The position numbers were made by a program, and so were the translations under genes. The notes under the pieces were generated by a model that worked only from the letters and a program-made list of their open reading frames with translations, did not search any database and was not told the DNA's origin. DNA of 59,231 bases. Source: a virus (lineage: Duplodnaviria; Caudoviricetes). The DNA is taken from positions 1 through 59,231 of IMG/VR virus record IMGVR_UViG_3300032212_000006; one strand, given 5' to 3'. Position 1 is the stretch's first letter. Each line of letters begins with the position of its first letter. Positions 11,117 through 57,731 of the stretch are shown piece after piece.

Positions 11117-11788
11117 ATGAATGTAAAGATGAATTGTATTACTCATCCATTAATACCTCGTGAAATAGCAGACAATGAGAGTAAGTTTGGACAAATAATG
11201 AATCCAGAAGAGTATATGATATACTGTGGACGTGTATCATCTCCAGATAATCGATTAAACCATGCTACTGCGCCTGGATTACTTAAATATTTAATCGATC
11301 ATCAACACTGGTCACCTTTTGAAATGATTTCTATAGGTATTGAGATTGAAACATCTCGTGCTATAGCACAACAAATGTTACGTCATCGCTCATTTAGTTT
11401 TCAAGAGTTTAGCCAACGCTACGCTAAAGTCGATAGTATGGAGCCTATTGAATTACGTAATAAAGCTGAAAAGAATCGTCAATCATCATCTGAACCAGTT
11501 ACTGACGATATGCTGAATGATAAAGCTAATGCAGCTGTAAAACTTTGTCAAGATGTATACGAAGACTTAGTAGATAATGGCGTATCAACTGAAACAGCAC
11601 GATTTATTCTTCCATTAACAACTCAAACTACAGTTATTATGCACGGCACATTACGTTCCTGGATTCACTTCTTTGCTCAGCGTTGTGATGATCACGCTCA
11701 AAAAGAAATTCGTGAAATTGCATTTGCAGCTCGTGAATTAATATCTAAACAATGTCCTTGGACTGCATCAGCTTTAGGTTGGGTTTAA
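11117..11788 (+). CDS. thyX: flavin-dependent thymidylate synthase
   Basis: Signature RHRSFSFQEFSQRY; HWSPFE; ARFILP; HAQKEIR. Confidence 0.95.
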   Translation: MNVKMNCITHPLIPREIADNESKFGQIMNPEEYMIYCGRVSSPDNRLNHATAPGLLKYLIDHQHWSPFEMISIGIEIETSRAIAQQMLRHRSFSFQEFSQRYAKVDSMEPIELRNKAEKNRQSSSEPVTDDMLNDKANAAVKLCQDVYEDLVDNGVSTETARFILPLTTQTTVIMHGTLRSWIHFFAQRCDDHAQKEIREIAFAARELISKQCPWTASALGWV

Positions 11789-11789
11789 T

Positions 11790-12011
11790 ATGACTGACGC
11801 ACAAGAACAATACGTTGAAGTAATAGATAAACAAATAGTCAAAGTAAGAGATAAAAGCTTTGGTATTATAGTTAGAAAACACTTATTATTTCACGAAGTT
11901 ATTGTGCGTCAAGCTAAACCTAGACGTGAATTCGTTACAACTGGTACTGAATCTGAAGTATTAAACATGAAAAAGAAAGGCCTTAAAAGTTTACTTAGGG
12001 GAAGAGTATGA
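11790..12011 (+). CDS. hypothetical protein
   Basis: Packed in operon. Confidence 0.55.
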   Translation: MTDAQEQYVEVIDKQIVKVRDKSFGIIVRKHLLFHEVIVRQAKPRREFVTTGTESEVLNMKKKGLKSLLRGRV

Positions 12012-12214
12012 GCGAATTACTATTAGCAATATCATTGGTATCTATAGCGCTATCAGGTATAATGTCTGTAAAGGTAGTACTAGATACGTATACTTATTTA
12101 TGGGATTATGAGTATAATAAATTAATGAAGTGGCCGTTTATTCAAAATGTAATACTTACTATGACATTATGGCTAACTACAATATCATTAATAATACCTT
12201 GTAGGTGTATTTAA
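12008..12214 (+). CDS. small two-TM membrane protein
   Basis: Two hydrophobic segments; ATGA overlap. Confidence 0.55.
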   Translation: MSELLLAISLVSIALSGIMSVKVVLDTYTYLWDYEYNKLMKWPFIQNVILTMTLWLTTISLIIPCRCI

Positions 12215-13608
12215 TGGGTTTATTAGTTCCATTTACTAAGTATTCTTGGCCTTCAAAATACGATAATCCTTTACAGAATCAAGTAAAGACAGTTAAGTTT
12301 ATGCTCGCTAATAAGCGAGGATTTATACTTAGTACTATGGGTACTGGTAAAACACTTAGCTGCCTATGGTTTTGTGATCTATTATACGTAAATACCAAAA
12401 TAACGAAGGTATTAATAGTAGCCCCATTATCTACGTTGCAAAGTGTTTGGGCAGACGAGATATTTTTTAATTTCTTAGGTGTGCCGTTTACTATATTACA
12501 CGGATCTAAACAAGAGCGTATCAAGCGATTAGATTCAGGTGCACTCTATTACATCATTAACCACGATGGTATAAAAGTTATTGAGCAAGAGCTAAGAGAT
12601 AAGAGATTTGACGTAATAATAATCGATGAATTAACCGCGTATAAAAATGCTAGGTCTGATAGAACTAAATGTATGAAGAGAATAGCAGACGGTAGCAAAA
12701 CAAAGCAACCTGCTGTATATGGTTTAACAGGTTCTATCACTGCAAATTCTCCATTAGACGCTTTTGGTCAAGCAAGAACTGTAAATCCTAATAATCCAAA
12801 ATTACCTAAATATTATGGTAGGTTTAGAGATTTACTTACTACCAAATTTGATGAGTTCACGTATATACCGAGGTTGGGTTGGGAGAATATATTAAAACCT
12901 ATGCTATACCCATCTATACGATTCACTATGGACGAGTGTATAGATTTACCACCTATTGTCTATGAAACTAGACAGTGTGATATGACTAAAGAACAAACAC
13001 GAGTATATAAAGATTTAAAGAATGACTATATAGCTCAATATAATGATGGACTTATTACAGCTGCAAATGCGGGTGTAAAGGTTTTAAAGCTATTACAAGT
13101 CAGTTGTGGTGCCGTAATAGATAAAGAAGGTACAGTTCAAGAATTTAGCAAGTCTCCAAAATTAAAAATCATTCAAGAAGTACATGAACAATTAGATAGA
13201 AAGAAATTAATAATATTCGTATTATTTAAAGCGTCTATAAAGCAAGTTGAAGAGTTTTTAAAATCTAAAAAGATATCGTGTGGAGTAATATCTGGCGATA
13301 TACCAATGAAGAAGCGATCTCAAGTATTTGATAGTTTTCAAAGAGGTGATTTAGAAGTTATAATAATTCAACCTTCAGCGGCAGCTCATGGGCTGACATT
13401 GACAGCAGCAAGCACTGTAATATGGTATACTCCAGTGCCGTCAAACGAAATATATATTCAGGCTAATGCACGAGTACGTAGACCTGGACAAAAATATAGA
13501 CAACTAGTTATACGATTAGAGTCATCACCTGTTGAACGTAAAATGTATAAAGCACTGGATAATAAAGATAAAATGAGTAATACATTATTATCTATGTTCC
13601 AAGAATAA
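12205..13608 (+). CDS. SNF2-family SF2 helicase
   Basis: MGTGKT, IIDEL, LTGS, HGLTLT, QANARVRRPGQ; probable start ATG 12214. Confidence 0.92.
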   Translation: MYLMGLLVPFTKYSWPSKYDNPLQNQVKTVKFMLANKRGFILSTMGTGKTLSCLWFCDLLYVNTKITKVLIVAPLSTLQSVWADEIFFNFLGVPFTILHGSKQERIKRLDSGALYYIINHDGIKVIEQELRDKRFDVIIIDELTAYKNARSDRTKCMKRIADGSKTKQPAVYGLTGSITANSPLDAFGQARTVNPNNPKLPKYYGRFRDLLTTKFDEFTYIPRLGWENILKPMLYPSIRFTMDECIDLPPIVYETRQCDMTKEQTRVYKDLKNDYIAQYNDGLITAANAGVKVLKLLQVSCGAVIDKEGTVQEFSKSPKLKIIQEVHEQLDRKKLIIFVLFKASIKQVEEFLKSKKISCGVISGDIPMKKRSQVFDSFQRGDLEVIIIQPSAAAHGLTLTAASTVIWYTPVPSNEIYIQANARVRRPGQKYRQLVIRLESSPVERKMYKALDNKDKMSNTLLSMFQE

Positions 13609-13676
13609 ATCACTGGGATTTAATATACAACGAAATAAATACGTAGTATAATATATCTATAAGTGAGGGAAATGTT

Positions 13677-14066
13677 ATGGCTAAAATAGATCAGGTAATC
13701 GCTAAATACTTAGAGTTTAGGGCTGAGTTAGACGCGAAACGTAAGCAATTTAAACAAGATGAGAAAGACTTAAAATTTAAGATGGAACGGTTATCTATGT
13801 GGATGGCCGGTCAATCTAAAGGTTTGGGTGTAAATAGTTTTGCTACAGATAGTGGCACTGCTTTTAAGCATACCAAGAAGGTTGTTAGGGTAGCTGATTG
13901 GGAACAAGTTCTCAAATTTATGTTAGAAACTGATAATCTTCAAATGTTAGAAAAACGTATCGGAAAAATTAATACTCTGGATATAATCGATGAAACAGGC
14001 GAAATTCCTCCAGGCGTAGAGTATTTTGAAGAGATTGAATTTCAAGTTCGTAAACCAACAAAATAG
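13677..14066 (+). CDS. conserved-type phage replication-module protein
   Basis: Promoter TATACA-N17-TATAAT (13624-13652); coiled-coil N-terminus; GTAF...DW...PPGV pattern. Confidence 0.7.
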   Translation: MAKIDQVIAKYLEFRAELDAKRKQFKQDEKDLKFKMERLSMWMAGQSKGLGVNSFATDSGTAFKHTKKVVRVADWEQVLKFMLETDNLQMLEKRIGKINTLDIIDETGEIPPGVEYFEEIEFQVRKPTK

Positions 14067-14074
14067 GAACTCTT

Positions 14075-14920
14075 ATGAGTAAAGACATAGTATTACCAGA
14101 CTATTTACGTGACCTTATGGAAGAAGGTAAGGTCGTAGACGATGCAGCAAACTTGATCACGGCTCAAGATTCTGTACCACGAATTTCACTTAAAGGTAAT
14201 AAGTTCAGTCTTATTGTTGACGGTGAAGTACAAGAAAAGATCAAAGAAGAAATGATGGTTATCATTTTAGGTACTCAACCTGATAAAGGTAACGCTAAAA
14301 CATTTTATCTTGGTGATTATGCTCCCGATGACAGCTCACCACCTGATTGTTCTTCTTCAAACGGTGTTAGTCCTGACGGTTGGGTTAGCAGTCCTCAAGC
14401 AGATCTATGCGCTACATGTCCTCAAAATAAATGGGGTTCAGCCGAATCAATGAGCGGTGGTAAGGCTAAAGCATGTCGCGATTCTAAACGACTTATGGTA
14501 TTAAATGCTAAAGATTTGGAAGGTCCTATTTACGTATTAAACGTAACTGTATCATCACTTAAAAATCTGACAGCATACGGTAAGCGTTTAGCTGAAGCAC
14601 ATATGCCCTTAGCTGCTGGCATTACCAAAGTAAGTCTTGATGAAGACAGCGATTTTCCTAAATTAGAGTTTGCTTTTGCAGGCGCTATGAAAGAAAAAAT
14701 GGGCGTTGCTATGCTTAAGCGTAGTTCTGAAAAAGAATGGGATACTGGCCCTGCTCTTGAAGCGCCTAAAGCTAAACCTGCACTGGCTCAATCAGAAGCT
14801 CCTACTGAAAAGGCCGAAGAAAAAGTCGTTGAAGGTACAGTCGAAAAAGATGACTCATCTGATGATAGCTCAACTACGGATGTAGATGACCTATTAGGTG
14901 ACTGGGAATCTGAAGACTAA
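14075..14920 (+). CDS. putative single-stranded DNA-binding protein
   Basis: PRIS, PDC.S, CATCPQNKWGS, GKAKAC; long acidic tail ending DDLLGDWESED. Confidence 0.65.
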   Translation: MSKDIVLPDYLRDLMEEGKVVDDAANLITAQDSVPRISLKGNKFSLIVDGEVQEKIKEEMMVIILGTQPDKGNAKTFYLGDYAPDDSSPPDCSSSNGVSPDGWVSSPQADLCATCPQNKWGSAESMSGGKAKACRDSKRLMVLNAKDLEGPIYVLNVTVSSLKNLTAYGKRLAEAHMPLAAGITKVSLDEDSDFPKLEFAFAGAMKEKMGVAMLKRSSEKEWDTGPALEAPKAKPALAQSEAPTEKAEEKVVEGTVEKDDSSDDSSTTDVDDLLGDWESED

Positions 14921-14966
14921 TATTAACTTGGGCCGTCTACATGAGGCCCACATTTAGGGTATACAA

Positions 14967-16616
14967 ATGAGTAAGTCACTATTATTAAGTTTAGGTCACG
15001 GTTCAAGTGCGGTGTATTTGGAAAACGGTGAAGTAGTTTGCGGCTATGAAGAAGAGCGATTAACACGAGTTAAATCTGATAGCAGATTTCCAATTAACGC
15101 CATTACTAAAATAACAGATCAACACGATTTGGACGGATGTGAAATTTATATAAGCCACTGGTTTATATTTGGTGAGTTGCCAGATGTACCAAATAAGTAC
15201 TACGATCCGCTTTGGATTGCAAGAACATTTCCTGATTCACCTATTTACAGTGTAAGTACTGAATTTACACATCATGATGCACACGCTTATTCAGCATTAG
15301 CATTTACAGATTTAGACGAATTCACTCAACATGATACGTTAGTCATTGTTGCAGATGGATTTGGAACAATGGGCGAGACTATGTCCATATACACATTACT
15401 AGATGGTTTACCTGAGTTACACCATCGTACCTTTGGATTTAGTTCTTCATTAGGCCTAATGTATCAGTACGCAACAAGTTATCTTGGCATGAAAGAAAAC
15501 CAAGACGAATACAAATTACTTGGTTATGAGTCTCAAATAGACACGCTATGTGCTACTAAAGATTTGAAGACTGATTTCATTCACTCATTTGCTTTAGCTG
15601 AAGTTAAGCGTCAAATGAAAGACATTAGTAAATACGATACAAATGAGCGCTTTGATCCCATATGTAATGTAGACGCATTACCTGCTTTAAAGCTAAAGTA
15701 CAGAGATCATTTTGATACTCTATTAAAACATTTGAATTGTGACTTTACTGACGAAGAAAAACGAATAGTGATAGCTTACTATGTGCAAATGAGATTAGAA
15801 ATGTCATTTGAAGCCATAATTAAGGCGTACGGTGTTAATAATCTAATATTATCAGGTGGCGTATTTATGAACGTCAAACTTAATAATTCTATCGTACAAC
15901 AAGTAAAAGGTAAAGTATCTATATTACCAATATGTGGTGATCAAGGTGCTCCTATCGGATTATACGATTATGTTAATAACGATTTTAAGTGGCCATATAA
16001 CTTATGTTGGGGTACACGTAGCTTATTCACAGGTGTAATGGATAATAGAATGTACTCTGTAGATAGCGAATCAATGGCATACCAATTTATGGTAGATTCA
16101 CTAAACAGAAATAAGATCGTTAATTTAGTACGTGGAGATATGGAATTCGGTTCTAGAGCATTATGTAATACTAGTACTATAGCCCTGCCAACTAAAGAAA
16201 ATGTGGAGTATATAAATACTCTTAATAATCGTTCAACTGTAATGCCTATGGCCCCTGTAATTCATGAAGATCATATGGACGACTTTTTCGACATATCTTA
16301 TAAGCGAGTACATAAGTCACTTGGGTATATGATATGTACGACTATGTTCAAAGTTATGAGTGATTTTATTAGAGGTGTTGCTCATAATGTTCCATTTTCT
16401 AATGAATTTACAGGTCGGCCTCAAGTTGTATCTGATTCTAGTAATCCTTTAATGGCTAAACTATGTAAACGGTTTAACGGTCCGTTAATAAATACTAGCT
16501 TTAATGTACACGGAGAACCTATAGTATATAGTATGAGTGATGTTAAAAGTAATCATGCATACCAAGTATCTCGTGATACAGAAAATCGTGTAGTAACAAT
16601 TATAGTGGAGAAGTAA
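14967..16616 (+). CDS. NodU/CmcH/TobZ-family O-carbamoyltransferase (putative 5hmC carbamoyltransferase)
   Basis: GHGSSA, EEERLTRVK, HHDAHA, DGFG, SLGLMY, GGVFMNVKLN, GDQG, MEFGSRAL, NTSFNVHGEP. Confidence 0.92.
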   Translation: MSKSLLLSLGHGSSAVYLENGEVVCGYEEERLTRVKSDSRFPINAITKITDQHDLDGCEIYISHWFIFGELPDVPNKYYDPLWIARTFPDSPIYSVSTEFTHHDAHAYSALAFTDLDEFTQHDTLVIVADGFGTMGETMSIYTLLDGLPELHHRTFGFSSSLGLMYQYATSYLGMKENQDEYKLLGYESQIDTLCATKDLKTDFIHSFALAEVKRQMKDISKYDTNERFDPICNVDALPALKLKYRDHFDTLLKHLNCDFTDEEKRIVIAYYVQMRLEMSFEAIIKAYGVNNLILSGGVFMNVKLNNSIVQQVKGKVSILPICGDQGAPIGLYDYVNNDFKWPYNLCWGTRSLFTGVMDNRMYSVDSESMAYQFMVDSLNRNKIVNLVRGDMEFGSRALCNTSTIALPTKENVEYINTLNNRSTVMPMAPVIHEDHMDDFFDISYKRVHKSLGYMICTTMFKVMSDFIRGVAHNVPFSNEFTGRPQVVSDSSNPLMAKLCKRFNGPLINTSFNVHGEPIVYSMSDVKSNHAYQVSRDTENRVVTIIVEK

Positions 16617-16618
16617 AA

Positions 16619-17011
16619 GTGATAAATACTGAACAAGTAATTGATTTTAACCAAACAGTTCTTGGCGTTGAAGCAAGACTTAAGGGGTTATTAGAAAATG
16701 CGGAACTATCAATTAGCCATAAGTGTATGGTGGAAGAAGCCGATGAATTGCTCACAGCTCATAAAGAATTCGATTTTATTGGTTCTGTGGACGCATGCCT
16801 TGACTCTATCTATTTCAGCGTTGGCGTACTATATAAACTTGGATTGACGTCTAAAGAAATGAGTGATTGTTTTGACGCAGTCCATAACGCTAATATGGAA
16901 AAGAAAAAAGGCACTAACGCAAAACGTGATACTGGTGCAGCTGACGCAGTTAAACCTGAAGGTTGGATTGCACCTGAAAAACGAATTGCTAAAATCTTAG
17001 GTATGGATTAA
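16619..17011 (+). CDS. MazG/PRA-PH-like nucleotide pyrophosphohydrolase (putative dCTPase)
   Basis: EEADE...DACLDSIY...VHNANMEK...KPEGW. Confidence 0.85.
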   Translation: MINTEQVIDFNQTVLGVEARLKGLLENAELSISHKCMVEEADELLTAHKEFDFIGSVDACLDSIYFSVGVLYKLGLTSKEMSDCFDAVHNANMEKKKGTNAKRDTGAADAVKPEGWIAPEKRIAKILGMD

Positions 17012-17556
17012 TGGCTATAATTTTAGAAGGCCCAGATAACGCTGGCAAAACAACACTTAGCAATTTGTTAAGTGATAAATTAAAGCTGCCTGTATTTCAT
17101 TCAGGCGGTCCACCTAAAAATAATAGTCATGCTAAAGTATGTTGTGACTTACAAAACTCATTAGCACATACTAATTGTGTATTAGATAGAATAACATCTA
17201 TTAGTCAACAAGTGTATGCTAATCGTTTAAATGATCCTATGTTACTTGATGAGTTGGAAAAATTATGTAATATACCTACCAATATAATTGTGTATTGTCG
17301 TCCATCAAATGAAAAACTGATGGATTTTTCAACTCATACAGTTGAAGAGCATGATACTGAAGATCATATGGCTTACGTCATTGAGAACCATCAAAATATA
17401 GTATCTATCTACGACAGACTCATGGTTAGTGTACCACATTTACATTACGACTGGTCAAGTGATATAAACGTAGATCATTTTATTAAGCAGTTACACTTAT
17501 GTATTAATATCCCTAATTATAAGGATAATATTTTACTTAAGCCTATAAAGCTCTAG
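17011..17556 (+). CDS. deoxynucleoside monophosphate kinase
   Basis: IILEGPDNAGKTT P-loop; LDR motif. Confidence 0.85.
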   Translation: MAIILEGPDNAGKTTLSNLLSDKLKLPVFHSGGPPKNNSHAKVCCDLQNSLAHTNCVLDRITSISQQVYANRLNDPMLLDELEKLCNIPTNIIVYCRPSNEKLMDFSTHTVEEHDTEDHMAYVIENHQNIVSIYDRLMVSVPHLHYDWSSDINVDHFIKQLHLCINIPNYKDNILLKPIKL

Positions 17557-17565
17557 GAGAAGACT

Positions 17566-18378
17566 ATGTCACAAGGCGAAACGTTTTTGAAATTGTACGA
17601 AGATGTAATGACTAACGGTCAAGTCATTTCACCTCGTGGAGAAAAAGTATTAGAGATAGAAGATTATCAATTTACTTTAGACCCATATGAACGATTTACA
17701 TCTTTTAACGCACGTAAATTGAGTCTTAAATATATTAAGGCTGAACTTATTTGGTATTTACGAGCTAACCCATATGATACCATGATTACTGAGCACGCTC
17801 AAATATGGACTGATTTACGTCAGCCTGATGGTCAATTCTTTTCTAACTATGGTCAATATTTATTCGATCAAAACACTGGCATATTTAATGTTATGGAAAC
17901 ATTAGTAAATGATAAAGATTCTCGTAGAGCGATCATATCATTACTTCAGCCTAAGCATTTATTTATAGACAATAAAGATGTTGTTTGTACATATAATTTA
18001 AGTTTCCGTATTCGTAATAACAAGTTAAATATGTCAGTAAACATGAGAAGTAACGATGCAGTTTGGGGTACTACTAATGACGTAGCTGCCTTCTCATTCG
18101 TACATGAGATGTTATTTACTTATTTAAAAGATCACTATATTGATCTGGAATTAGGTACTTACACTCACAAGGTAGATTCTATTCATATCTACGAACGTCA
18201 TTTTGAAATGGCAAAAGCAATCATCGATGAAGGTACCAAAGGTTATTATGAGTTAACTGTACCTAAAATGAAAAGTAGTGATGAGTTAGAGCAATTACTC
18301 ATTACAGTTAAATCAGGTCAATTTAATTCTGACTATGAAAGTGAAGAATCTTCATTTACTAATTGGTTGCTATCATGA
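17566..18378 (+). CDS. thymidylate-synthase-family enzyme, probable dCMP hydroxymethylase
   Basis: SRRA, catalytic DVVC, RSNDAVWGTTND (Asp at the specificity position as in T4 gp42), SIHIYERH. Confidence 0.85.
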   Translation: MSQGETFLKLYEDVMTNGQVISPRGEKVLEIEDYQFTLDPYERFTSFNARKLSLKYIKAELIWYLRANPYDTMITEHAQIWTDLRQPDGQFFSNYGQYLFDQNTGIFNVMETLVNDKDSRRAIISLLQPKHLFIDNKDVVCTYNLSFRIRNNKLNMSVNMRSNDAVWGTTNDVAAFSFVHEMLFTYLKDHYIDLELGTYTHKVDSIHIYERHFEMAKAIIDEGTKGYYELTVPKMKSSDELEQLLITVKSGQFNSDYESEESSFTNWLLS

Positions 18379-18878
18379 GACCGTCAGTACCAGTATGGTT
18401 GATGGGTATGGCTAAGCATGCTGCATTACGCAGTACGTGCTTACGCCGTAGCGTAGGTTGCGTATTAGTTAACGAACGCGATCAAATACTTTCGACTGGA
18501 TATAACGGTGTACCGTCAGGCTTTAAACACTGCAATGAAGGCGTATTAGAAGGTACTATGGATTGGGCAGGTGTATCTTATCCAAATAAATGCTCAGGTG
18601 CCGATGCGCCGTCAGGTGAAAAGTTAGATGCGTGTAACGCAGTTCATGCGGAACAAAATGCATTGTTACAGTGTCCGAATGTTTATGAAATAAAAACTGC
18701 GTATGTAACAGCTTCACCTTGCATGCATTGTATAAAGTTACTCTTAAACACGTCTTGCGAAGTGATTGTCTTCGACGAAGAGTACACACACTGCGAAGCA
18801 AAGACTATGTGGATTGACTCAGGTCGGACGTGGTTAAATATTAATGATCTTGATGAGAACGTAGATACCAATATGTGA
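18363..18878 (+). CDS. dCMP deaminase
   Basis: RSTC..RSVGC, GYNG, HAEQNA, SPCMHC; probable start ATG 18375. Confidence 0.93.
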   Translation: MVAIMRPSVPVWLMGMAKHAALRSTCLRRSVGCVLVNERDQILSTGYNGVPSGFKHCNEGVLEGTMDWAGVSYPNKCSGADAPSGEKLDACNAVHAEQNALLQCPNVYEIKTAYVTASPCMHCIKLLLNTSCEVIVFDEEYTHCEAKTMWIDSGRTWLNINDLDENVDTNM

Positions 18879-24924: not shown

Positions 24925-27900
24925 CTATATAGTTAGAAGGGACACCGTCCTGGATTCATCTGTAAGTGACTGAGTTCTAGTTTCATCACTTATTAGTTGA
25001 ACAGATAATACACCAGATAATATTTGTTGTATAATTATACCATCAAGGTTACCATATGTAAACGTTGACTTACTTATTAATGAATCTATACTAGACAGTA
25101 CAGAATGTGCGGTTATTATAACTGAATCTATATACGTATTTAATGATTGACTTAATTGTAGTACAGAGTCTACACTAGATATACTATACATAGATTTTTG
25201 TAATATAGAATTTAGTGATGTAGATGTATTAATATTCGCTACTATGATCGATTCTAATAAAGATGACAGGTTATTAGCTATCTGCAATACTCCATCTGTA
25301 CTAATAGTAGTAGATATTACATTCTGCAACACAGATTCAATAGATGTATTGATATTATTACCTGATAAAGTCAATATAGAATCTACTGTGGATGTTATGG
25401 TTTTAGATTGTTGAACCAGTGAATCTAGTGTTGATATTAATTGAGCTACGTCTTGAATAAGTGAAGATACATCTGTAAACACTACAGAACCACCTGATAA
25501 TATAGCATTGACAGACGTTGTTGTTAATAGCGATGCCTGCAACATAGAATCTAAAGATGCATTTGAAAACTCATTAGACTCGAGTATAGAATCTATAGCG
25601 GAATTAATAGTAAACGATGCGGATAATATAGAATCTAAATTAGATGATACTGAGGTATTACTTTGCAGCATGGAATCTACTGATATGTTATTTAGCAATG
25701 TATTCAATATTCGTGAATCTATACTAGATATTAAATTTAAACTATCACGCAACATGGCGTCTGTATTTGCAGATGTAGATATCAGTTTAGATAGCATACT
25801 ATCTACAGACGAAGTAGTACTAACACCTTGTAACATAAGTCTACTGTCTAAAGACGCAGACAAAACTAATTGACTTTGTACTATTGAATTTAAAGATAAA
25901 TTAATACTTCGTGATACAATAGGAAGAGCAGGAGGCGTATAATCAGTAACTTCTGTGGCAGAATACGCGTAGTTGTCAAACATGAAGTAAAACAACTCAA
26001 CATCACTATCTGTATTATTACTGTTACCTGCACCTAAAGACCACCATTCCGCAGGAGGAGCTGTCCATGTTTGTGTTTGTGTATCTCTGAGTGTGTCATC
26101 TACATAAAGTTTAACAGTACGATTTACGCCGCTACCTTCTATAGTAATAACCACTTTGTACTCTGTTGTTGCGCTTGGAAGTGTATATGTAACAGGTGCA
26201 GCACCGCTGATATTGAAACTCAATACACCACTTGCGTTTATATCTGCAAACCAAGACGAAGAACCGAGATGGCTATCAATGAGCGTGTTGTTGGCTTTGA
26301 ATGTTGTAGCCTTAATGCCAAGACATATCGTACATTCATCAGGAATCTTAGCAAATACATCAACATAGTATTGTTCGCTTAAGTGCAGACTGCCTGCAGT
26401 GCGTGTAGGCGCCGCTGGTTTTGTTGACGTATAGATTCGTTTTGCAGCAAAACTGTTGTATTTAAAACTGCCACTGACAATGTGTATATCTTCTACTTCC
26501 CCAGCAACAGGATCACACCAGCTTCCTATAACCGCACCTGCCATATCAAATTGGAATATGCGTTCTGCACCCAACGTGCCAGATTGATTTTTAGCAACAT
26601 GATACATCGTGTCACTGGAGGCTTCATGATATGCGCCATTGCAATGTATGCGAATGTCGAGGTCAATAACACCGCTGTATGTTTGAGCTGTTAAGTCGTA
26701 TCTCCAAACGTGTGAGCCGTAACTGTAACTTACCGCCAACGCCTCATCACCTGCAACATCAATTGCTACACCGGACATAGCAAACTTTTCTGCAGTACAA
26801 TCGATATAGTGGTCAAGTGGCAAACCCGCCAATGTGGTGTCATACGCAGCAATGGTCATATTCGACCACGATGCACCACTGTACCAACCCACATCTACAT
26901 ATAGTAAACCGGTAACTGCCGTACCACCACCGATTGCATTAGGGGTATTGGGAGAAGTTGGTAAACCGCTGTATGGCGTTGAGTTAGTCTCATGCGTCGT
27001 TGCCAAATCCAAACTTTTCTGCACAACAGAAGGCGTGGTCTGGCCGCCAATATAGGCGTAAGTGCCATCTTCTGAATACATCTGATACTCAGATTGCGCA
27101 GCAGAGGTATTTGTTACAGTCAGCACTTCACCCACTACAGCATTAAGCCGCGAATCGTAATTATTCTCGCAGACTGCACCACTGGATTCATTAAATGCCA
27201 ATTCGATTAATGGAGTGCTTGTGGTTTGGGTTGCATCATAATGAACGCCGATGTCTGTCGTTGCAGCGGCCGGTCTGGAGTTGCCGAATATATCCTCAGA
27301 TGGCACATCGGCATCAACAGATGAACCTACACCTGCACCCACAAGTGCTGATTGCCAAGCAAGACTAAATACGCCTTGGAATCTGTTGTGGTAATAGTCA
27401 GGGTCGTTGAAGTCTGAAACGGTAACTGGGTTAGTGCCTGTGCCTGCCGCAGTTGCACAGTTGGTAAATGTTACTGTGCCGGTTCCGCCTGATGTCACAT
27501 TGCAGTTGTACGCACCGTTCTTTGCAACAGTAGCAACGGAAGAGTTGTTCCATAACCCTCTATAGCAGTTATCCTGAATACAGTTGTACTGTCTGTGAGT
27601 TTTATTTGTCGAGCCATTGTAACTTGCAATATAGTCATTAGAGCCGCGTTTGATATCCAACTCAATCACGTTGAAGTCATCAAGATCGCCATTAGCCCAG
27701 TAAATGCCACGGATGTAATTACCGCCTGTTGCAGCACACTTCAACAGCATATTGCGTCGAATCATTTTGCCTGTGCCAGTCCAACTAATAGCTCTTCTGG
27801 AATTGGTAGTCGGAGCCCAGAGAATCTGGAAGTTTCGAAGCGTAATGTAATCTGTATCAATCGTCAGTGCAGTTGCGTTACCAACACTCAATTCTGATTT

Positions 27901-28380
27901 GGTGCTGTCATACTGAGCACCTGCAAAATCGCCTGATAGAATCAGTTGGTTGACTGCGTCTGTAATGGTAGTTGACGAATGATTTACAACAGTGTTGTCG
28001 CTGTTACGTGCGATAATATCAACTGCACCCCCGCTCGTATCGTCAATTGTAACCAGCTCGACTTCACCATCAGTTGCACCTGTTATCGTAGTGTCTGTGC
28101 CTAACGGCGATCCAGTCAACACCTCGTATTGAAGCGTTGTGCCAGTCAAGTCTATAAGTCGTGCAGTAGCGCCAGAACCAGTAAACGTGATGGTCTGATT
28201 TGCGGTAGCGAATGCAGATGTGACTGTTACGGTAGACTGATTAATGTTGCTGTAATCTTGCCCGTTGGCACACTCAGCTGCAAGTGCGGCATCTCGGCTG
28301 GTATAGGCATTTGCCCAATCCCAGCCTGTGCCTGAACCCGTAGCCAGCGGATCTGCATACTTTTTTACGTCAACTGTCAT
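24925..28380 (-). CDS. large fibre/adhesin-like virion protein
   Basis: 1151 aa; possible beta-helix and LamG-like segments (KLYVDD...SLGA); C-terminal ~15-aa S.DS.L repeats. Confidence 0.7.
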   Translation of the reverse strand: MTVDVKKYADPLATGSGTGWDWANAYTSRDAALAAECANGQDYSNINQSTVTVTSAFATANQTITFTGSGATARLIDLTGTTLQYEVLTGSPLGTDTTITGATDGEVELVTIDDTSGGAVDIIARNSDNTVVNHSSTTITDAVNQLILSGDFAGAQYDSTKSELSVGNATALTIDTDYITLRNFQILWAPTTNSRRAISWTGTGKMIRRNMLLKCAATGGNYIRGIYWANGDLDDFNVIELDIKRGSNDYIASYNGSTNKTHRQYNCIQDNCYRGLWNNSSVATVAKNGAYNCNVTSGGTGTVTFTNCATAAGTGTNPVTVSDFNDPDYYHNRFQGVFSLAWQSALVGAGVGSSVDADVPSEDIFGNSRPAAATTDIGVHYDATQTTSTPLIELAFNESSGAVCENNYDSRLNAVVGEVLTVTNTSAAQSEYQMYSEDGTYAYIGGQTTPSVVQKSLDLATTHETNSTPYSGLPTSPNTPNAIGGGTAVTGLLYVDVGWYSGASWSNMTIAAYDTTLAGLPLDHYIDCTAEKFAMSGVAIDVAGDEALAVSYSYGSHVWRYDLTAQTYSGVIDLDIRIHCNGAYHEASSDTMYHVAKNQSGTLGAERIFQFDMAGAVIGSWCDPVAGEVEDIHIVSGSFKYNSFAAKRIYTSTKPAAPTRTAGSLHLSEQYYVDVFAKIPDECTICLGIKATTFKANNTLIDSHLGSSSWFADINASGVLSFNISGAAPVTYTLPSATTEYKVVITIEGSGVNRTVKLYVDDTLRDTQTQTWTAPPAEWWSLGAGNSNNTDSDVELFYFMFDNYAYSATEVTDYTPPALPIVSRSINLSLNSIVQSQLVLSASLDSRLMLQGVSTTSSVDSMLSKLISTSANTDAMLRDSLNLISSIDSRILNTLLNNISVDSMLQSNTSVSSNLDSILSASFTINSAIDSILESNEFSNASLDSMLQASLLTTTSVNAILSGGSVVFTDVSSLIQDVAQLISTLDSLVQQSKTITSTVDSILTLSGNNINTSIESVLQNVISTTISTDGVLQIANNLSSLLESIIVANINTSTSLNSILQKSMYSISSVDSVLQLSQSLNTYIDSVIITAHSVLSSIDSLISKSTFTYGNLDGIIIQQILSGVLSVQLISDETRTQSLTDESRTVSLLTI

Positions 28381-51093: not shown

Positions 51094-51377
51094 GATCTTC
51101 GCTCCGTTTAATTATTGTATGAGTTAATTATAAACACGAAATGGCCAGAAGTACAACAGTTTAATCACAGCCCGTTATCGAATATTATTCTATTAATGGC
51201 GGGCGCGGGTGCGCGCGTAACTACCACATGTAAACACAATTGTACATATATAAATCGTTGGACCCAATATCGAGTCACAACGCCATAGCGGCGCGGCGGC
51301 CCCGACTGTAATCCCAGAAGGCAAGTCTTTAACGCCGCGGCACCCACGCCCACACGCACGTGTGTCAGAATCAATAT

Positions 51378-52010
51378 GCCCAAAGGTGGAGCAACCTACC
51401 CAAAGGTAGAGCGGCGCGACGGCTCCATGAATAATTCTTCCGGATTTCAATTCTTCCGAATTCTTCCGTTAAGAGGTAGAATTCGGAAGAAAGGTGGCTA
51501 AAGGTGCCGAAGGTAGTATGCTTGAAGGTAGAGCAACATCAAACTATACATGAAATACGGCGGCTCCTCGGCACCAGAACTGACGAGCGCACACGATTCC
51601 GGCCTTCTGGACATGTTACCAAAGTAGTTATTACGCCAGAGCTTCCGTTCTACTACTATTTAAAAACTTTTAAAACTAGTATATACAGTGGTTATATGGT
51701 TATAGGTTATTATATTATATTTATTATACTTTATTATATAAGTAAGAAGAAGAAGAATAATGGTTAAAAATACGTTAAAAATTAATAACTTATGGTATCT
51801 TCCGTTTATTCTTCCGGCTACACAACTAATTTAAAAACGGAAGAAACCACTGATTTGTGCCGACGCACTACGTCACTTTACGCTTAGTTGACAATACGAG
51901 ATCTTCCGTTTTAACTTCACGAGCTTCCAACGAGTTTAAAACGGAAGAACACCTTTAATAGTTGGAAGTTTCTTCTGAATTCTACCACTTGACGGAAGAA
52001 TTAGGAAGCA
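51378..52010. other. putative replication origin or packaging region (iterons around an AT-rich core)
   Basis: About 11 TCTTCCG/CGGAAGA-type copies in both orientations around very AT-rich 51655-51795; sits at the divergence of the two arms. Confidence 0.55.
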
Positions 52011-52388
52011 TCAGCTAAACCGCAAACAACTTTGGTACCGACGTGCCGCCCTGTACCATTCATTATTACCATATATCTAATACACAATATCAAGTACTCA
52101 GGAACTAGTCGTCTACTATATCGTATAACGGTGTATCGGCACTCTGAATTTCTTACCTTGACGAGTACTTAATGCCGTCACATTGAGTGCCGTGATGCCG
52201 ACGTATAGTGTAACTAGTTTAAGCGTCTATAATACCAGATAATATGCACGTACGTAAGTACATCATATTACGCGTAGACTCCCGAAGATTTCACACAGAT
52301 GTAAAGTAGTATACTTAATCTTGATTGGGTCCTGGAGGGAGTGTAATCGGAGTGCCGACACATATGGTAATTAAAGTCATGGACCAAG

Positions 52389-52417
52389 TGTACATAGAGA
52401 TAAATACATTGTATTAT
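52389..52417 (+). promoter_or_regulatory. promoter TGTACA-N17-TATTAT for the RNA cluster
   Basis: Family consensus; start falls just before the tRNA-like element. Confidence 0.7.
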
Positions 52418-52426
52418 ATAAGGTAT

Positions 52427-52525
52427 AGTCAAGTGGCGGAATTGGTAGACGCAGCCTCAGTCGACGATTAGGTGTAGAAGAAACGTAAGGACTACACGTT
52501 GTAGGTTCGAATCCTACCTTGACTA
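52427..52525 (+). tRNA. tRNA-like RNA (Leu-type class II scaffold) with non-canonical anticodon arm
   Basis: Acceptor AGTCAAG/CTTGACT, D arm TGGCGGAATTGGTAGACGC, T arm GTAGG-TTCGAAT-CCTAC; no 7-nt anticodon loop; no encoded CCA. Confidence 0.7.
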
Positions 52526-52531
52526 CTATAT

Positions 52532-52649
52532 GGTGATAAGTTGATCGGTAACCAGAAAGCCCGAGACCGCACCCTGACACCCTTCGGGTACACAGGCATA
52601 AAACTAGGAGCGGCGTAATGGATAACAGTAGGTTGGCTTATCACCTCCA
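52532..52649 (+). ncRNA. 118-nt structured RNA ending in stem-U-CCA
   Basis: 15-bp closing stem GGTGATAAGTTGATC/GGTTGGCTTATCACC then TCCA; inner C-UUCG-G hairpin. Confidence 0.65.
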
Positions 52650-52658
52650 AATTTAAAA

Positions 52659-52675
52659 ATCGTTGTGAGGGCGAT
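52659..52675 (+). promoter_or_regulatory. RBS-hairpin motif ATCGTTGTGAGGGCGAT (also near 52864, 55058, 57791, 2866)
   Basis: Repeated directly upstream of start codons; stem overlaps the GAGG SD. Confidence 0.7.
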
Positions 52676-52858
52676 ATGTCATACACAGAAAATAACTTCT
52701 TAGATGATTTAAAGACGGAATTGATAGAAGATAATCCAGAATATAAGATTCTTCTTGACTATATTGAAGGGCGTATTAAACAGGCTGTGCAACATACGCT
52801 TGATAATATTGAGTTTGCTACTAAAGAAGATATTCAAGAGATGATTGATAGACTATAA
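52676..52858 (+). CDS. acidic hypothetical protein
   Basis: Follows RBS motif. Confidence 0.65.
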   Translation: MSYTENNFLDDLKTELIEDNPEYKILLDYIEGRIKQAVQHTLDNIEFATKEDIQEMIDRL

Positions 52859-52879
52859 ATAAATCGTTGTGAGGCGAAT

Positions 52880-53182
52880 ATGTACGACATAGAATATACA
52901 AGCATTCATGGTATTTGTTTTGATGAAGGTCAAAGCGGTAATTGTGGTCTTGAGTGTCGAGGATTACTATCTAACCAATGTGAAATTGAAGACGAGATGC
53001 TTGAATCATGCTCATTCAATGAGATATACGATACAGGTGAGTTTATTGATTACTTAATCGATAAGTTTATTGGCGAGTTTAGAATGCAGATTTTTATGCA
53101 ACAAACGAAGATTGAGTTTGATATAAATAAACACCTTGAAAATATGAGAAATGGTGCCGTTGAACCTAAACGTATAGGATGA
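52880..53182 (+). CDS. Cys-containing acidic hypothetical protein
   Basis: Follows RBS motif variant GTGAGGC. Confidence 0.65.
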   Translation: MYDIEYTSIHGICFDEGQSGNCGLECRGLLSNQCEIEDEMLESCSFNEIYDTGEFIDYLIDKFIGEFRMQIFMQQTKIEFDINKHLENMRNGAVEPKRIG

Positions 53183-53186
53183 TATA

Positions 53187-53405
53187 ATGGATAGTTATGA
53201 TATTAAGAAGTTAGAGAATATAGCGTATATTAATTCTCAAATAGCGTGTGCGCAAGCTACGATAGCAGGTATGCAGGCAACAAATACCGAAAGACTAGCT
53301 AATGGTTATACAGTAGCGTATGGCGAAGAAGAGTTTGAAAACGTTATTAATCGATTTGGGTTACATCATAATAGTGTTTTAACTACATTTAATAATGGGT
53401 TATAG
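53187..53405 (+). CDS. hypothetical phage protein
   Basis: AGGA SD; GMQATN..R...G...AY.EE.F pattern. Confidence 0.65.
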   Translation: MDSYDIKKLENIAYINSQIACAQATIAGMQATNTERLANGYTVAYGEEEFENVINRFGLHHNSVLTTFNNGL

Positions 53406-54117
53406 TATGAGTAATGAGAAGATTTTAGCAAGAGCTAAAGCGTTATTGGCTATGAGTCAAGACGCGTCATCAGAACATGAGGCTATGATTGCAGCACGAA
53501 GACTACATTCGTTGCTAGCGAAACATAATATATCAGTTTTGGATCTTGACGACAATCAAGAAGAAGTTGGCGAATGTGAGTTTCATGTAAATGATTGGCC
53601 ATGGAAAAGAACTATAGGTTATTGGGTAGCTAAGTTATATTTTTGCGAGTTGACGTACCAAAGAACTAAAAGAAATTACGCAAACTATTTTGTAACAGGT
53701 ACTGAAGTAAATAGATTATTCGCAGAATCAATAATGAAGAACGTGTTCTTTACTATAGACTTGGCGTCTAAAGTTGAAAGCAGAAAACTGTATGGTAAAG
53801 TCGTATCTTCATTCGTAACATCATTCCGTAATGGTGCGTCTAATACTATAGCTTTGCGGTGTAATGAGTTAATAGATCAAGCCAAAGAAGGAACTTTGGT
53901 AGATGATGAAGGTAATACGTTACCAATATTGTCGTCTGTATACGATAAGTACGAAGCTGAAAATAGTGCGTATATGGAGAAGCTAGATATAAAGACTTCT
54001 AAATCATCGATTAGATCTTTGGACAGTAAAGGATATACAGCGGGTGCCGAAGCAGGTGAGAATGTGCAACTAAGTCGATCAGTACAAGATAAGTCAAGTC
54101 CTAAATTGTTGGAGTAA
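53395..54117 (+). CDS. DUF2786-domain protein
   Basis: KILARAKALLAMS...EHEA..AAR...LL.KHNIS; SF..G; GY.AG..AG. Confidence 0.75.
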   Translation: MGYSMSNEKILARAKALLAMSQDASSEHEAMIAARRLHSLLAKHNISVLDLDDNQEEVGECEFHVNDWPWKRTIGYWVAKLYFCELTYQRTKRNYANYFVTGTEVNRLFAESIMKNVFFTIDLASKVESRKLYGKVVSSFVTSFRNGASNTIALRCNELIDQAKEGTLVDDEGNTLPILSSVYDKYEAENSAYMEKLDIKTSKSSIRSLDSKGYTAGAEAGENVQLSRSVQDKSSPKLLE

Positions 54118-54482
54118 TTATGCGTACAGTATATGATCCCAGAACCAATGAGTATGTTGTATCTAATAATCCTGCTTTGATTTTAGCAGATGAAATGTGT
54201 AAGACACATAAGAAATCAGTGCTAGACCCTGAATATTGGTTACTTATTTGCTATATGGCTAATTATATGGAGGATTACGTATGAGTAAAGCGTATATATG
54301 TTATGATTGTGGTCTTATCACAACTAAAATCTTTAGTAATGGTGATAATAAACATAGATGTGATAAATGCTCTTATACCAAGTATGTAACTGATAACCCA
54401 TTGACACACGGTTTATTAATACGTAAAGATTCTGTAGTTGATTTTAATGTGAAAGCTTAGTAAATTAAATTCAAGGATCAAG

Positions 54483-54511
54483 TGTACATAGTTAAAATAA
54501 GGTGGTAATAT
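54483..54511 (+). promoter_or_regulatory. promoter TGTACA-N17-TAATAT for the second RNA cluster
   Basis: Predicted start about 54518 equals the first base of the TGTTGGA/TCCAACA stem. Confidence 0.7.
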
Positions 54512-54517
54512 AGTAAC

Positions 54518-54760
54518 TGTTGGATGAGTGCAGCTAAGAGTATATAGTGACGCGTATACCTCCAACATGATCAAATGAAGTATAGCAGCAGTAGTGCGCA
54601 CTATGGGAGATCTACACCCTTTATCTGATTTTGATCGGCACGGTCGAAGTGTAGGTAGTATCAGTACCTAAGCAAGTAGGACTTGAGAGGTTATGCGGAA
54701 GACGGTAATCAATCCGTTAACATACATACCATAACTGGTGGAGGTGCAAGCCCTCTTATA
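54518..54760 (+). ncRNA. candidate structured RNA region
   Basis: Several stems (TGTTGGA/TCCAACA, TAGGTA/TACCTA, GTTATG/CATAAC) and a T-loop-like arm GGAGG-TGCAAGC-CCTCT; no credible ORF. Confidence 0.5.
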
Positions 54761-54761
54761 T

Positions 54762-54826
54762 GGAGTGAGTGTACGTTAAATTTATTTTAACTTGTGTAGT
54801 AGCTAGTTCGTGCACTCACTCCTCCA
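54762..54826 (+). ncRNA. 65-nt hairpin RNA ending in stem-U-CCA
   Basis: 14-bp stem GGAGTGAGTGTACG/CGTGCACTCACTCC then TCCA. Confidence 0.65.
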
Positions 54827-54828
54827 AT

Positions 54829-55047
54829 TAGATTATTTACCGAGAGGCATTACACGCTAATGGGAATTTATAGTAAGGGGCACCTGAATTAAAAAGAAGT
54901 TAGTATTTGTGACGATGGATCTGAAAATCCGCAGCCAAGGAAACATAAATAAGTAACTGTAAAGTAAGGGCACTGAAACACAGCGAAAATTTATAGTGTG
55001 AAACGAAGCAAATAGTGAAGTTGTAGTGTCGCGCGGTAAGTAATTTA
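54829..55047 (+). ncRNA. candidate ~220-nt RNA closed by a long interrupted helix
   Basis: 54832-54842 pairs with 55034-55044; 54846-54854 with 55022-55030; 54855-54859 with 55013-55017. Confidence 0.6.
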
Positions 55048-55077
55048 TAAGTAATTAATCGTTGTGAGGGCGATATA

Positions 55078-55308
55078 ATGAATATTAAACACGATGTAAA
55101 AACAGTATCTGACCATGAAATAACTCTAAGCGGTGAAGATATAATTGAGTTAATCAATCTATATATCCATGTAGAACTAAAAGGTGCTAAAGTGCCTAGC
55201 GATGCCACTGTAAAGTTCTCAGTTCCAGGTGGTGGAGACTATTCTAACCAAAGAGTAGATATAGATAAGGATAACAATGTAATCGTATCTTGGTCAGATA
55301 TGTCATGA
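55078..55308 (+). CDS. hypothetical protein
   Basis: Follows RBS motif; VPGGGDYSN. Confidence 0.65.
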   Translation: MNIKHDVKTVSDHEITLSGEDIIELINLYIHVELKGAKVPSDATVKFSVPGGGDYSNQRVDIDKDNNVIVSWSDMS

Positions 55309-57079: not shown

Positions 57080-57303
57080 ATAATTTCGCAGAATTCTTTG
57101 CTGAGTATATGAGTATAAATCCTAATGCCGAAGGAGATCGTATCATATACCAAATTAATAATCGCACATTGACTGTAAATGATTTTAAAGAGCTTCTTAC
57201 TATGTATGACTGTGAACACTGCAAACATGTAAGAAAAGAACAATCTGATTACCCATGTAATAAATGCAATAGTTACGATATGTTTGAGGTACGTATAAAA
57301 TGA
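57076..57303 (+). CDS. small Cys-rich protein
   Basis: CEHCKH...PCNKC; ATGA overlaps. Confidence 0.6.
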   Translation: MNNFAEFFAEYMSINPNAEGDRIIYQINNRTLTVNDFKELLTMYDCEHCKHVRKEQSDYPCNKCNSYDMFEVRIK

Positions 57304-57731
57304 TACTAGATATAGTGACAAATAAAAAGGAATTATCAAAAGTTTGTATGCAGGCTATAGACGTAGACACAGCAAAAATAGTTGGCGATGATTTATTAGA
57401 CACAGCAAATAGCATATATGATAGTTGTGCAGGTTTAGCAGCACCACAAATAGGGCATAGTTCAAGGATTGTAGTTGTCAAATTAGATGATGGGTTTGAA
57501 TTAATGATAAACCCTCAATACATAACAAAATCCGGTAAGCGACAGAATGGAAAAGAAGGTTGCCTATCTAGACCATCGACTATTGAAAATAATGTCAGTG
57601 TTAAGCGATATTACAGAATAAAAATCAAATACGTAGATAAAGATTTTAAGATAGTCGTTAAGAAGTTTAAAGGTTTTCAAGCTAGAGTCATTCAACATGA
57701 GATAGACCATTTAAATGGTATATTAATATAG
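57300..57731 (+). CDS. def: peptide deformylase
   Basis: All three motifs: GLAAPQIG, EGCLS, QHEIDHLNG. Confidence 0.95.
   Translation: MILDIVTNKKELSKVCMQAIDVDTAKIVGDDLLDTANSIYDSCAGLAAPQIGHSSRIVVVKLDDGFELMINPQYITKSGKRQNGKEGCLSRPSTIENNVSVKRYYRIKIKYVDKDFKIVVKKFKGFQARVIQHEIDHLNGILI

Follow-up and report, generated by a model that had tools for sequence, protein, structure and literature searches.

The virus record IMGVR_UViG_3300032212_000006, which is analyzed here over its entire length of 59,231 bases (the window) and is rated as a complete phage, carries two long hairpins in untranslated leaders on its plus strand. Genes for portal, terminase, tape-measure, and tail-fibre proteins lie on the minus strand, and nucleotide-metabolism genes form a block on the plus strand; a DNA polymerase, a primase-polymerase, and a helicase are also encoded. 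Judged by the portal protein, the nearest named phage is only 41.5% identical. Hairpin 1 (positions 52532 to 52649, plus strand) is located in a leader of about 250 nt (leader 1), and hairpin 2 (54762 to 54826, plus strand) in a leader of about 560 nt (leader 2).

The two hairpins had first been described in a sequence-only reading, and their coordinates and sequences were found to be as given there. Hairpin 1 is closed by 15 consecutive pairs, including four G-U pairs, around an 88-nt interior, and hairpin 2 by 14 pairs, including one G-U pair, around a 33-nt A/U-rich loop; in both cases the stem is followed by an unpaired UCCA. They are read as plus-strand RNA, because the G-U pairs would be A-C mismatches on the other strand. 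The same reading had claimed identical boundaries, and this is correct: TATAT stands directly 5' of the paired G1 and G2, and the paired C-C on the 3' side is followed by T, CCA, and A. The UAUAU spacer before hairpin 1 (52527 to 52531, plus strand) is identical to that before hairpin 2 (54757 to 54761, plus strand), the proposed cleavages falling after U52531 and U54761, respectively. The interiors of the two hairpins share nothing; as second and third pairs, hairpin 1 has G-C and U-A, whereas hairpin 2 has G-C and A-U. Long stems alone are within chance expectation, as the window contains 118 stems of at least 12 bp (G-U pairs allowed, span up to 170 nt) versus 84 to 118 in 12 dinucleotide shuffles. 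The shared frame of the two hairpins, on the other hand, is beyond chance: they are identical at 12 of 12 flank positions, whereas the best pair in each of 12 dinucleotide shuffles reaches 9 or 10. The fold of hairpin 2 is also strong (z-score -6.29; matched by none of 200 shuffles).

This frame is the frame of a phage tRNA gene. The boundaries agree with tRNA gene ends in having U at position -1, the pairs G1-C72 and G2-C71, then a single unpaired nucleotide before an encoded CCA, and a trailer rich in A and U. The comparison is based on 671 distinct tRNA genes from the collected loci, 660 of them with at least six of seven acceptor pairs; the sample is biased, in that 80 loci were picked by the pattern TATATGG, most of their tRNA genes lying elsewhere than at that junction. 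Where a T arm is followed by TATATGG, the next tRNA predicted by ARAGORN starts at that G in 34 of the 80 phage junctions, duplicates included. Among the 660 genes, U at -1 is present in 476, an encoded CCA in 327, and a GG start with a CC end in 152. The discriminator U73 is found in 45 of the 327 CCA-encoding genes, and thus is tolerated in real substrates.

Similarity to individual tRNA genes extends into the stems. In hairpin 1, the outer 7 bp are those of the acceptor stem in the tRNA-Met(CAU) genes of loci L097 and L140 (14 of 15 positions), and in hairpin 2 the outer 7 bp together with the discriminator match the tRNA-Ser(UGA) gene of L099, also present in L141, at 13 of 15 acceptor positions. 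The L099 gene has the complete frame of hairpin 2, namely TATAT, a stem starting with GGAG and ending with CUCC, then U, CCA, and an ATT trailer. The acceptor-stem matches show compatibility with tRNA genes and are not proof of descent from them. Phage tRNA-Ser genes with U73 and CCA are cloverleafs of 86 to 93 nt with anticodons, whereas the hairpins have no D, anticodon, or T arms; ARAGORN predicts no genes in the window, and Rfam at E ≤ 10 over 52000 to 55200 gives no tRNA match at either hairpin. The U discriminator with encoded CCA is observed in tRNA-Ser genes of L099/L141, L111/L119, and L156, in place of the G that is usual in bacterial tRNA-Ser.

The sequence-only reading had suggested from U73 and G1-C72 that the RNAs might carry Cys or Gly identity. 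Aminoacylation of released minihelices by glycyl- or cysteinyl-tRNA synthetase (GlyRS or CysRS) now appears most improbable. Both hairpins do contain U73 with G1-C72, and the 45 CCA-encoding phage tRNA genes with U73 include 15 for Gly and 8 for Cys. Yet GG and CC ends combined with U73 and CCA occur in 10 of the 660 genes, and these are mostly tRNA-Ser (7 Ser, 2 Cys, 1 Lys, no Gly). The Gly and Cys identity sets require C2-G71 or a GCA anticodon; the second pair is G-C in both hairpins, the third pair does not fit either, and there is no anticodon. Neither a synthetase nor a CCA-adding enzyme was found among the 36 different open reading frames (ORFs) scanned.

Hairpin 1 is preceded by a tRNA-like element (52427 to 52525, plus strand), which begins leader 1 within a few bases of the predicted transcript start and matches the Rfam tRNA model RF00005 with 40.6 bits (cut-off 29). 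It retains intact acceptor, D, and T arms, and over 24 nt of the D-arm stretch annotated phage tRNA-Leu genes are 100% identical to it; it has an oversized variable arm, an A discriminator, and no encoded CCA; on this sequence evidence the element is shown to be of tRNA-Leu ancestry. Its anticodon region comprises 41 nt where the model has 17 and folds as 8 bp with a 3-nt loop, so the 7-nt anticodon loop is missing, and ARAGORN makes no call. The Rfam check that had been proposed earlier returned this element as the only tRNA match over 52000 to 55200. The claim that each hairpin follows a tRNA-like arm holds well for hairpin 1, where 6 nt separate the Rfam tRNA match from G1, and is weak for hairpin 2, which is preceded by a predicted T-arm-like hairpin of 5 bp with a 7-nt loop (54740 to 54756) that lacks statistical support (fold z-score 0.82) and has no tRNA match at E ≤ 10.

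Both loci are arranged in the same order: promoter, 5' element, UAUAU, a stem opening with GG and closing with CC, UCCAA, and a conserved ribosome-binding motif. The promoter regions form a 50-nt direct repeat with 76% identity. Copy 1 (52369 to 52418, plus strand) contains TGTACA, 17 nt, and TATTAT within a conserved GTGTACATAG box, and includes a sigma-70-like site with a score of 9/12; copy 2 (54463 to 54512, plus strand) contains TGTACA, 17 nt, and TAATAT. The GTGTACATAG box is exact at 52385 and 54479, and related promoter boxes are present in two relatives of the phage, L044 and L081. A GTGTACAT(AG) box common to the phage and these two relatives overlaps the -35 position, with 17 nt between it and a downstream -10-like hexamer (window positions 52385 and 54479; L044 positions 6924 and 8328; L081 positions about 1650, on the minus strand, and about 2080); it probably represents the early promoter type of the group.

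At the downstream end of the leaders, a ribosome-binding motif, TCGTTGTGAGGGCGATAT, has four copies in the genome with up to three mismatches versus 0.05 expected. Motif 1 (52657 to 52677, plus strand) precedes the first gene after leader 1, with its ATG at 52676, 26 nt beyond the end of hairpin 1, and motif 2 (55056 to 55076, plus strand) precedes the gene at 55078. The copies of TCGTTGTGAGGGCGATAT at 52660, 52864, 55059, and 57792, with a shorter form at 2885 and 13677, stand before selected genes, including the first gene after each leader; the ends of the motif can pair, which places GAGG in a loop, and it may be an operator for a translational regulator. In leader 2, the 5' domain (54519 to 54756, plus strand) contains a CCUCCAA box at 54559 to 54565 in addition to the T-arm-like hairpin; over its approximately 240 nt it folds no better than shuffles (z-score -0.06) and has no Rfam match. 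A third structured domain (54829 to 55050, plus strand) is closed by a stem of about 14 bp that is not framed by GG and CC-UCCA; its z-score is -2.75, and 2 of 200 shuffles fold as well. An alternative fold of leader 2 is possible: its predicted 5' end (positions 54519 to 54530) is complementary over 12 nt, with one mismatch, to 54816 to 54828 in hairpin 2's 3' arm and tail, a pairing that competes with the hairpin's own 5' arm. The leaders were scanned for ORFs, and neither contains a convincing one. A type I toxin was considered and rejected, as the ORFs of 25 and 20 amino acids within the hairpins are badly spaced relative to any GGAG and belong to no family.

Tentatively, and with something short of an even chance, we regard the hairpins as non-cloverleaf minihelix RNAs in tRNA slots, matured by RNase P and 3' trimming. 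Each hairpin carries all the end signals of a phage tRNA gene and stands in the position that such a gene would take in a tRNA array, with an unrelated interior in place of the cloverleaf body and a terminal helix lengthened to 14 to 15 bp. Host RNase P would cut between U52531 and G52532 and between U54761 and G54762, and an endonuclease together with exonucleases would trim the 3' side back to CCA. The cuts would separate the upstream tRNA-like element, free a stable CCA-ended hairpin RNA, and set the 5' end of the downstream operon mRNA, the hairpins being placed in the 5' leaders of what appear to be two early operons with duplicated promoters. We infer that the promoters are transcribed, that the transcripts are cleaved, and that the released RNAs are stable, and likewise any function that these RNAs may have.

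The leader and helix rule of RNase P is followed in both hairpins, which have an unpaired UAUAU, U at -1, and a G+1:C pair, and in both the CCA is in register. One paper names hairpin-loop model substrates, phage phi80 M3 RNA, the P1/P7 C4 antisense RNA, and pre-4.5S RNA as targets of bacterial RNase P (PMC11143913). According to another, a minimal hairpin substrate is cleaved fastest in its U-1/G+1 variant, and substrates are anchored by the 3' RCCA, whose R73 pairs with the enzyme RNA (PMC12710915). Both sources describe U-1/G+1 hairpin substrates with 3' RCCA that are cleaved by bacterial RNase P, with cleavage where single strand passes into double strand (PMC12710915, PMC11143913). The phage hairpins share with these substrates the single-stranded leader, U-1/G+1, and a CCA one nucleotide past the helix, and differ from them in having a U rather than a purine discriminator and 14 to 15 bp with a large interior rather than 12 bp with a T loop. 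Of the earlier interpretation, the tRNA-type boundaries and the precedent of RNase P hairpins are retained, and the Cys/Gly identity and the notion of a family are not, the latter amounting to two copies in the genome, each with its own copy of the promoter, and a single hairpin of loose similarity in one relative.

Relatives were sought by several routes. Megablast of 52300 to 55060 against phages gave no matches, and single-protein locus searches with the 240-aa DUF2786 protein and the terminase gave no relatives. The 17-nt promoter box occurs in five stretches in IMG/VR, all of unrelated sequence. Profile searches with the neighboring DUF2786 protein yielded 11 viral, 25 metagenome, 29 viral, and 4 genome loci, mostly distant, with only L044/G001 (54%) and L081 (56% in this protein, the closest relative) being moderately close. 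One leader of L044/G001 resembles leader 2: a 10-mer with CCUCCAA (54557 to 54566 in the window) is identical and lies at a similar distance from the promoter, and it is followed by an A/U-rich run, a GG-initiated hairpin (z-score -3.56), and then CC-UCCA. A pattern search with the box plus the 10-mer returned G001 and two coding-like stretches without such a hairpin. No match was obtained in an Rfam scan of L044, and L044/G001 has no tRNA. True tRNA-Met or tRNA-Met plus tRNA-Arg genes with encoded CCA are found in the leader upstream of the DUF2786 gene in 3 of 11 more distant loci, and because of these the region is a tRNA slot in the wider group.

Several observations weigh against processing by tRNA enzymes as proposed above. 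Taken as a whole, the 118 nt of hairpin 1 fold only marginally better than shuffled sequence (z-score -1.45; equalled by 20 of 200 shuffles). The discriminator is U in both hairpins, not a purine as the RCCA rule for E. coli-type RNase P would have it. By our estimate, the chance of an exact 7-bp acceptor match among 152 stems with GG and CC ends is 0.1-0.2. There is no close homologue in the collections searched, and the only public sequencing run that contains the sequence is a DNA run from a microbial mat, which may be its source, with no RNA run listed. Nor is the RNase P frame kept in the relatives. In L044 the UCCA after the hairpin at 8457 to 8497 is 2 nt too far from the helix, and position -1 is A; L081 has the promoter boxes and a 37-nt leader without the RNA cassette, which is therefore dispensable. 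Finally, CCUCC(A) may be a motif in its own right: G001 has three CCUCC in its 171-nt leader versus five in 18,939 nt (P = 1.5e-5), and the third CCUCCAA box of the window, at 54559, is preceded only by a weak 6-bp hairpin and lies outside the NCCA register.

The last of these observations introduces another explanation, possible although on the doubtful side, in which the CCUCC(A)A box is an anti-Shine-Dalgarno-like, C-rich leader motif beside the hairpins and its NCCA register is incidental. Such a box would affect translation or the fate of the RNA, either by binding a protein or by base-pairing with ribosome-binding sites of the GGAG type, in cis or in trans. CCUCC(A) is the core of the anti-Shine-Dalgarno sequence, and hairpin 1 does end, as had been noticed, in ATCACCTCCA, which we take to match the 16S rRNA tail; blastn of 52600 to 52660 against E. 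coli genomes gave no match, the word being too short for this search to inform. On the plus strand between 52427 and 59231, CCUCC occurs three times only, always in the two leaders and always as CCUCCAA; three occurrences in 808 nt of leaders stand against four in the remaining sense strand of 28,077 nt (P = 2.3e-4), and the motif is significantly clustered in the leaders of both the window phage and G001. The two phages have the 10-mer containing the box in identical form, similarly far from the promoter, the box at 54559 as well as two of G001's three are outside the NCCA register, most genes of the phage use GGAG-type sites, and the 5' arms of the hairpins begin with GGAG or GGUG. The anti-Shine-Dalgarno resemblance thus belongs to a wider pattern of CCUCC boxes in the leaders, for which the tRNA acceptor-end reading accounts only in part.

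The box taken alone, however, leaves unexplained the UAUAU leader, the exact 1-nt spacing before CCA, and the tRNA-like neighbors. Its first two C are paired in both hairpins (two of five bases), and its pairing with the adjacent conserved ribosome-binding motif would extend over only about 4 bp. In a duplex scan of five leader pieces against 158 ORF-start windows, covering all ORFs of at least 60 amino acids on both strands, only antisense ORFs overlapping the query were obtained. Moreover, CC-U-CCA arises automatically in a GG-initiated tRNA with U73 and encoded CCA, as in the 10 of 660 tRNA genes mentioned above.

In another explanation, the hairpins would be functionless remnants left by the decay of a tRNA array or by duplication of a leader, and their frame simply inherited from tRNA genes or from a single duplication. 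The promoters are paralogous, the upstream tRNA-Leu-like element has lost its anticodon loop, intact tRNAs occupy the same place in relatives, L081 does without the cassette, and the acceptor-like outer 7 bp are similar to real tRNA stems. Decay should nevertheless erode the terminal helix, and instead both hairpins retain 14 to 15 uninterrupted pairs in which the sole non-Watson-Crick pairs are G-U. Neither copy has lost any of the 12 flank positions, although the interiors are unrelated, and a lytic-type genome of 59 kb has little space for junk. We consider relics unlikely.

The position of each hairpin upstream of the first gene of an operon, with A/U-rich spacers on both sides, could also be understood if the hairpins were 5' stabilizers or sites for other nucleases (RNase E cutting the A/U spacer or RNase III the stem) that stay attached to the mRNA, the CCA being irrelevant. 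Co-transcription of tRNA and mRNA occurs in bacterial operons, and its products are then separated by nucleases. This explanation is quite unlikely in our judgment: stems of 14 to 15 bp are short for RNase III, the criterion for which is about two helical turns, and the identical U-CCA-A in both hairpins would have no explanation. A role in termination is not indicated, as no terminator-like site is predicted on the plus strand in 51300 to 55300, the hairpins being followed by UCCAAAUUU and UCCAAUUAG.

The proposed maturation of the minihelices by tRNA enzymes has its nearest parallel in the species 1 and 2 RNAs of phage T4 (rnaC and rnaD), which are non-tRNA small RNAs encoded directly after tRNA-Arg on the same transcript, with a few A/U-rich bases between. 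Hairpin 1 has the same layout, a non-tRNA RNA right after a tRNA-like element; in T4, ACCA comes after rnaD, and a T-arm-like hairpin is part of rnaC. The T4 RNAs differ in that they are not simple long hairpins from nucleotide 1 and belong to a true tRNA cluster, not to the leader of a protein operon. The folds differ as well, and we detected no sequence or structural homology of the hairpins to rnaC or rnaD. In blastn against 50,697 phage records, the matches listed for locus 1 (the best 25 of 117 records) lie only in the tRNA-like part, none covering 80% of the query, and locus 2 gave none. Maturation by RNase P and 3' trimming, as we propose it for the hairpins, has likewise been deduced for the T4 RNAs. 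The function of species 1 and 2 is still listed as unknown, according to a published account (PMC9697503).

A second parallel is offered by the t-elements of plant mitochondria, described in one paper as tRNA-shaped processing signals in mRNA that are cut by tRNA enzymes and define mRNA ends (PMC1920247). The t-elements keep a cloverleaf-like fold, and in the phage only the element at 52427 to 52525 does so, whereas the hairpins keep the acceptor end alone.

Beyond processing, the phage might make stable RNAs that copy a tRNA's acceptor end alone (a long helix opening with G1G2, then U73 and CCA) next to its anticodon-less tRNA-Leu shell, as functional mimics and not processing by-products, an idea that we consider decidedly improbable. 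Such mimics could act as decoys for host enzymes or for defence toxins whose targets are acceptor stems or the 3' CCA ends of tRNAs. Competition for RNase P, for the CCA-adding enzyme, or for a synthetase is conceivable too; in the last case an identity of the seryl-tRNA synthetase (SerRS) type fits better than Gly or Cys. The CCUCC tail could at the same time imitate the anti-Shine-Dalgarno sequence of the ribosome.

Should the processing of the minihelices by tRNA enzymes be real, the phage would have retained the end signals of a tRNA gene while its body was exchanged, and a bacterial virus would provide a natural set of minihelix RNAs together with tRNA-type punctuation of an operon leader. 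It would be a second and simpler case beside the T4 species 1 and 2 RNAs, and a clean substrate for in vitro study of the role of such RNAs. If the hairpins are relics, or if the CCUCC boxes are the real signal, the observation reduces to an unusual leader in one uncultivated phage.

Other identities were considered and rejected. A promoter of a phage RNA polymerase at the TATAT/GG junction is not supported, as the two sites have different sequences upstream and the scan of 36 different ORFs revealed no RNA polymerase. Y RNA/YrlA, 4.5S RNA, 6S RNA, and tmRNA have no Rfam match here, and no Ro/Rsr homologue is present among the ORFs scanned. Two microRNA matches are attributed to chance, MIR156 at hairpin 2 (19.6 bits versus a cut-off of 62) and mir-601 in L081 (23.3 bits versus a cut-off of 98). 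A "hairpin plus CCUCCA" in L016/L047 falls into a coding region with iteron-like repeats.

Some further features of these genomes deserve mention. Among the tail genes, a 1151-aa ORF (24925 to 28380, minus strand) has no Pfam or PHROG match. A peptide deformylase gene (57300 to 57731; Pfam E = 1.1e-34) is in the same early block as the leaders. The cluster at 11117 to 18878 encodes ThyX, a thymidylate-synthase homologue, dCMP deaminase, a MazG-like pyrophosphatase, a possible nucleotide kinase, and a NodU/CmcH-type carbamoyltransferase, a gene content that suggests a modified pyrimidine in the phage DNA. The switch between minus- and plus-strand gene blocks (51200 to 52000) includes a G+C-rich block at 51200 to 51400 (G+C content about 0.55 versus about 0.37 elsewhere), a very A/T-rich stretch at 51690 to 51790, and numerous copies of a TTCTTCCG/AACGGAAGA unit in direct and inverted orientation, and looks like an origin or a regulator-binding array. 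In the switch region of L044 (4860 to 5180), about 220 nt of A/T-rich sequence lie between the arms of a large inverted repeat (about 43 bp).

Upstream of the DUF2786 gene in L007 (4800 to 4840), L008, L011, L012, and L013, the loop of a small hairpin pairs past an A-rich run to form a pseudoknot. It resembles a preQ1-I riboswitch, but Rfam does not call it and this assignment was dropped. The loop and its partner covary between loci, with the pairs CCUAGU/ACUAGG, CCUGCU/AGCAGG, and CGGU/ACCG.

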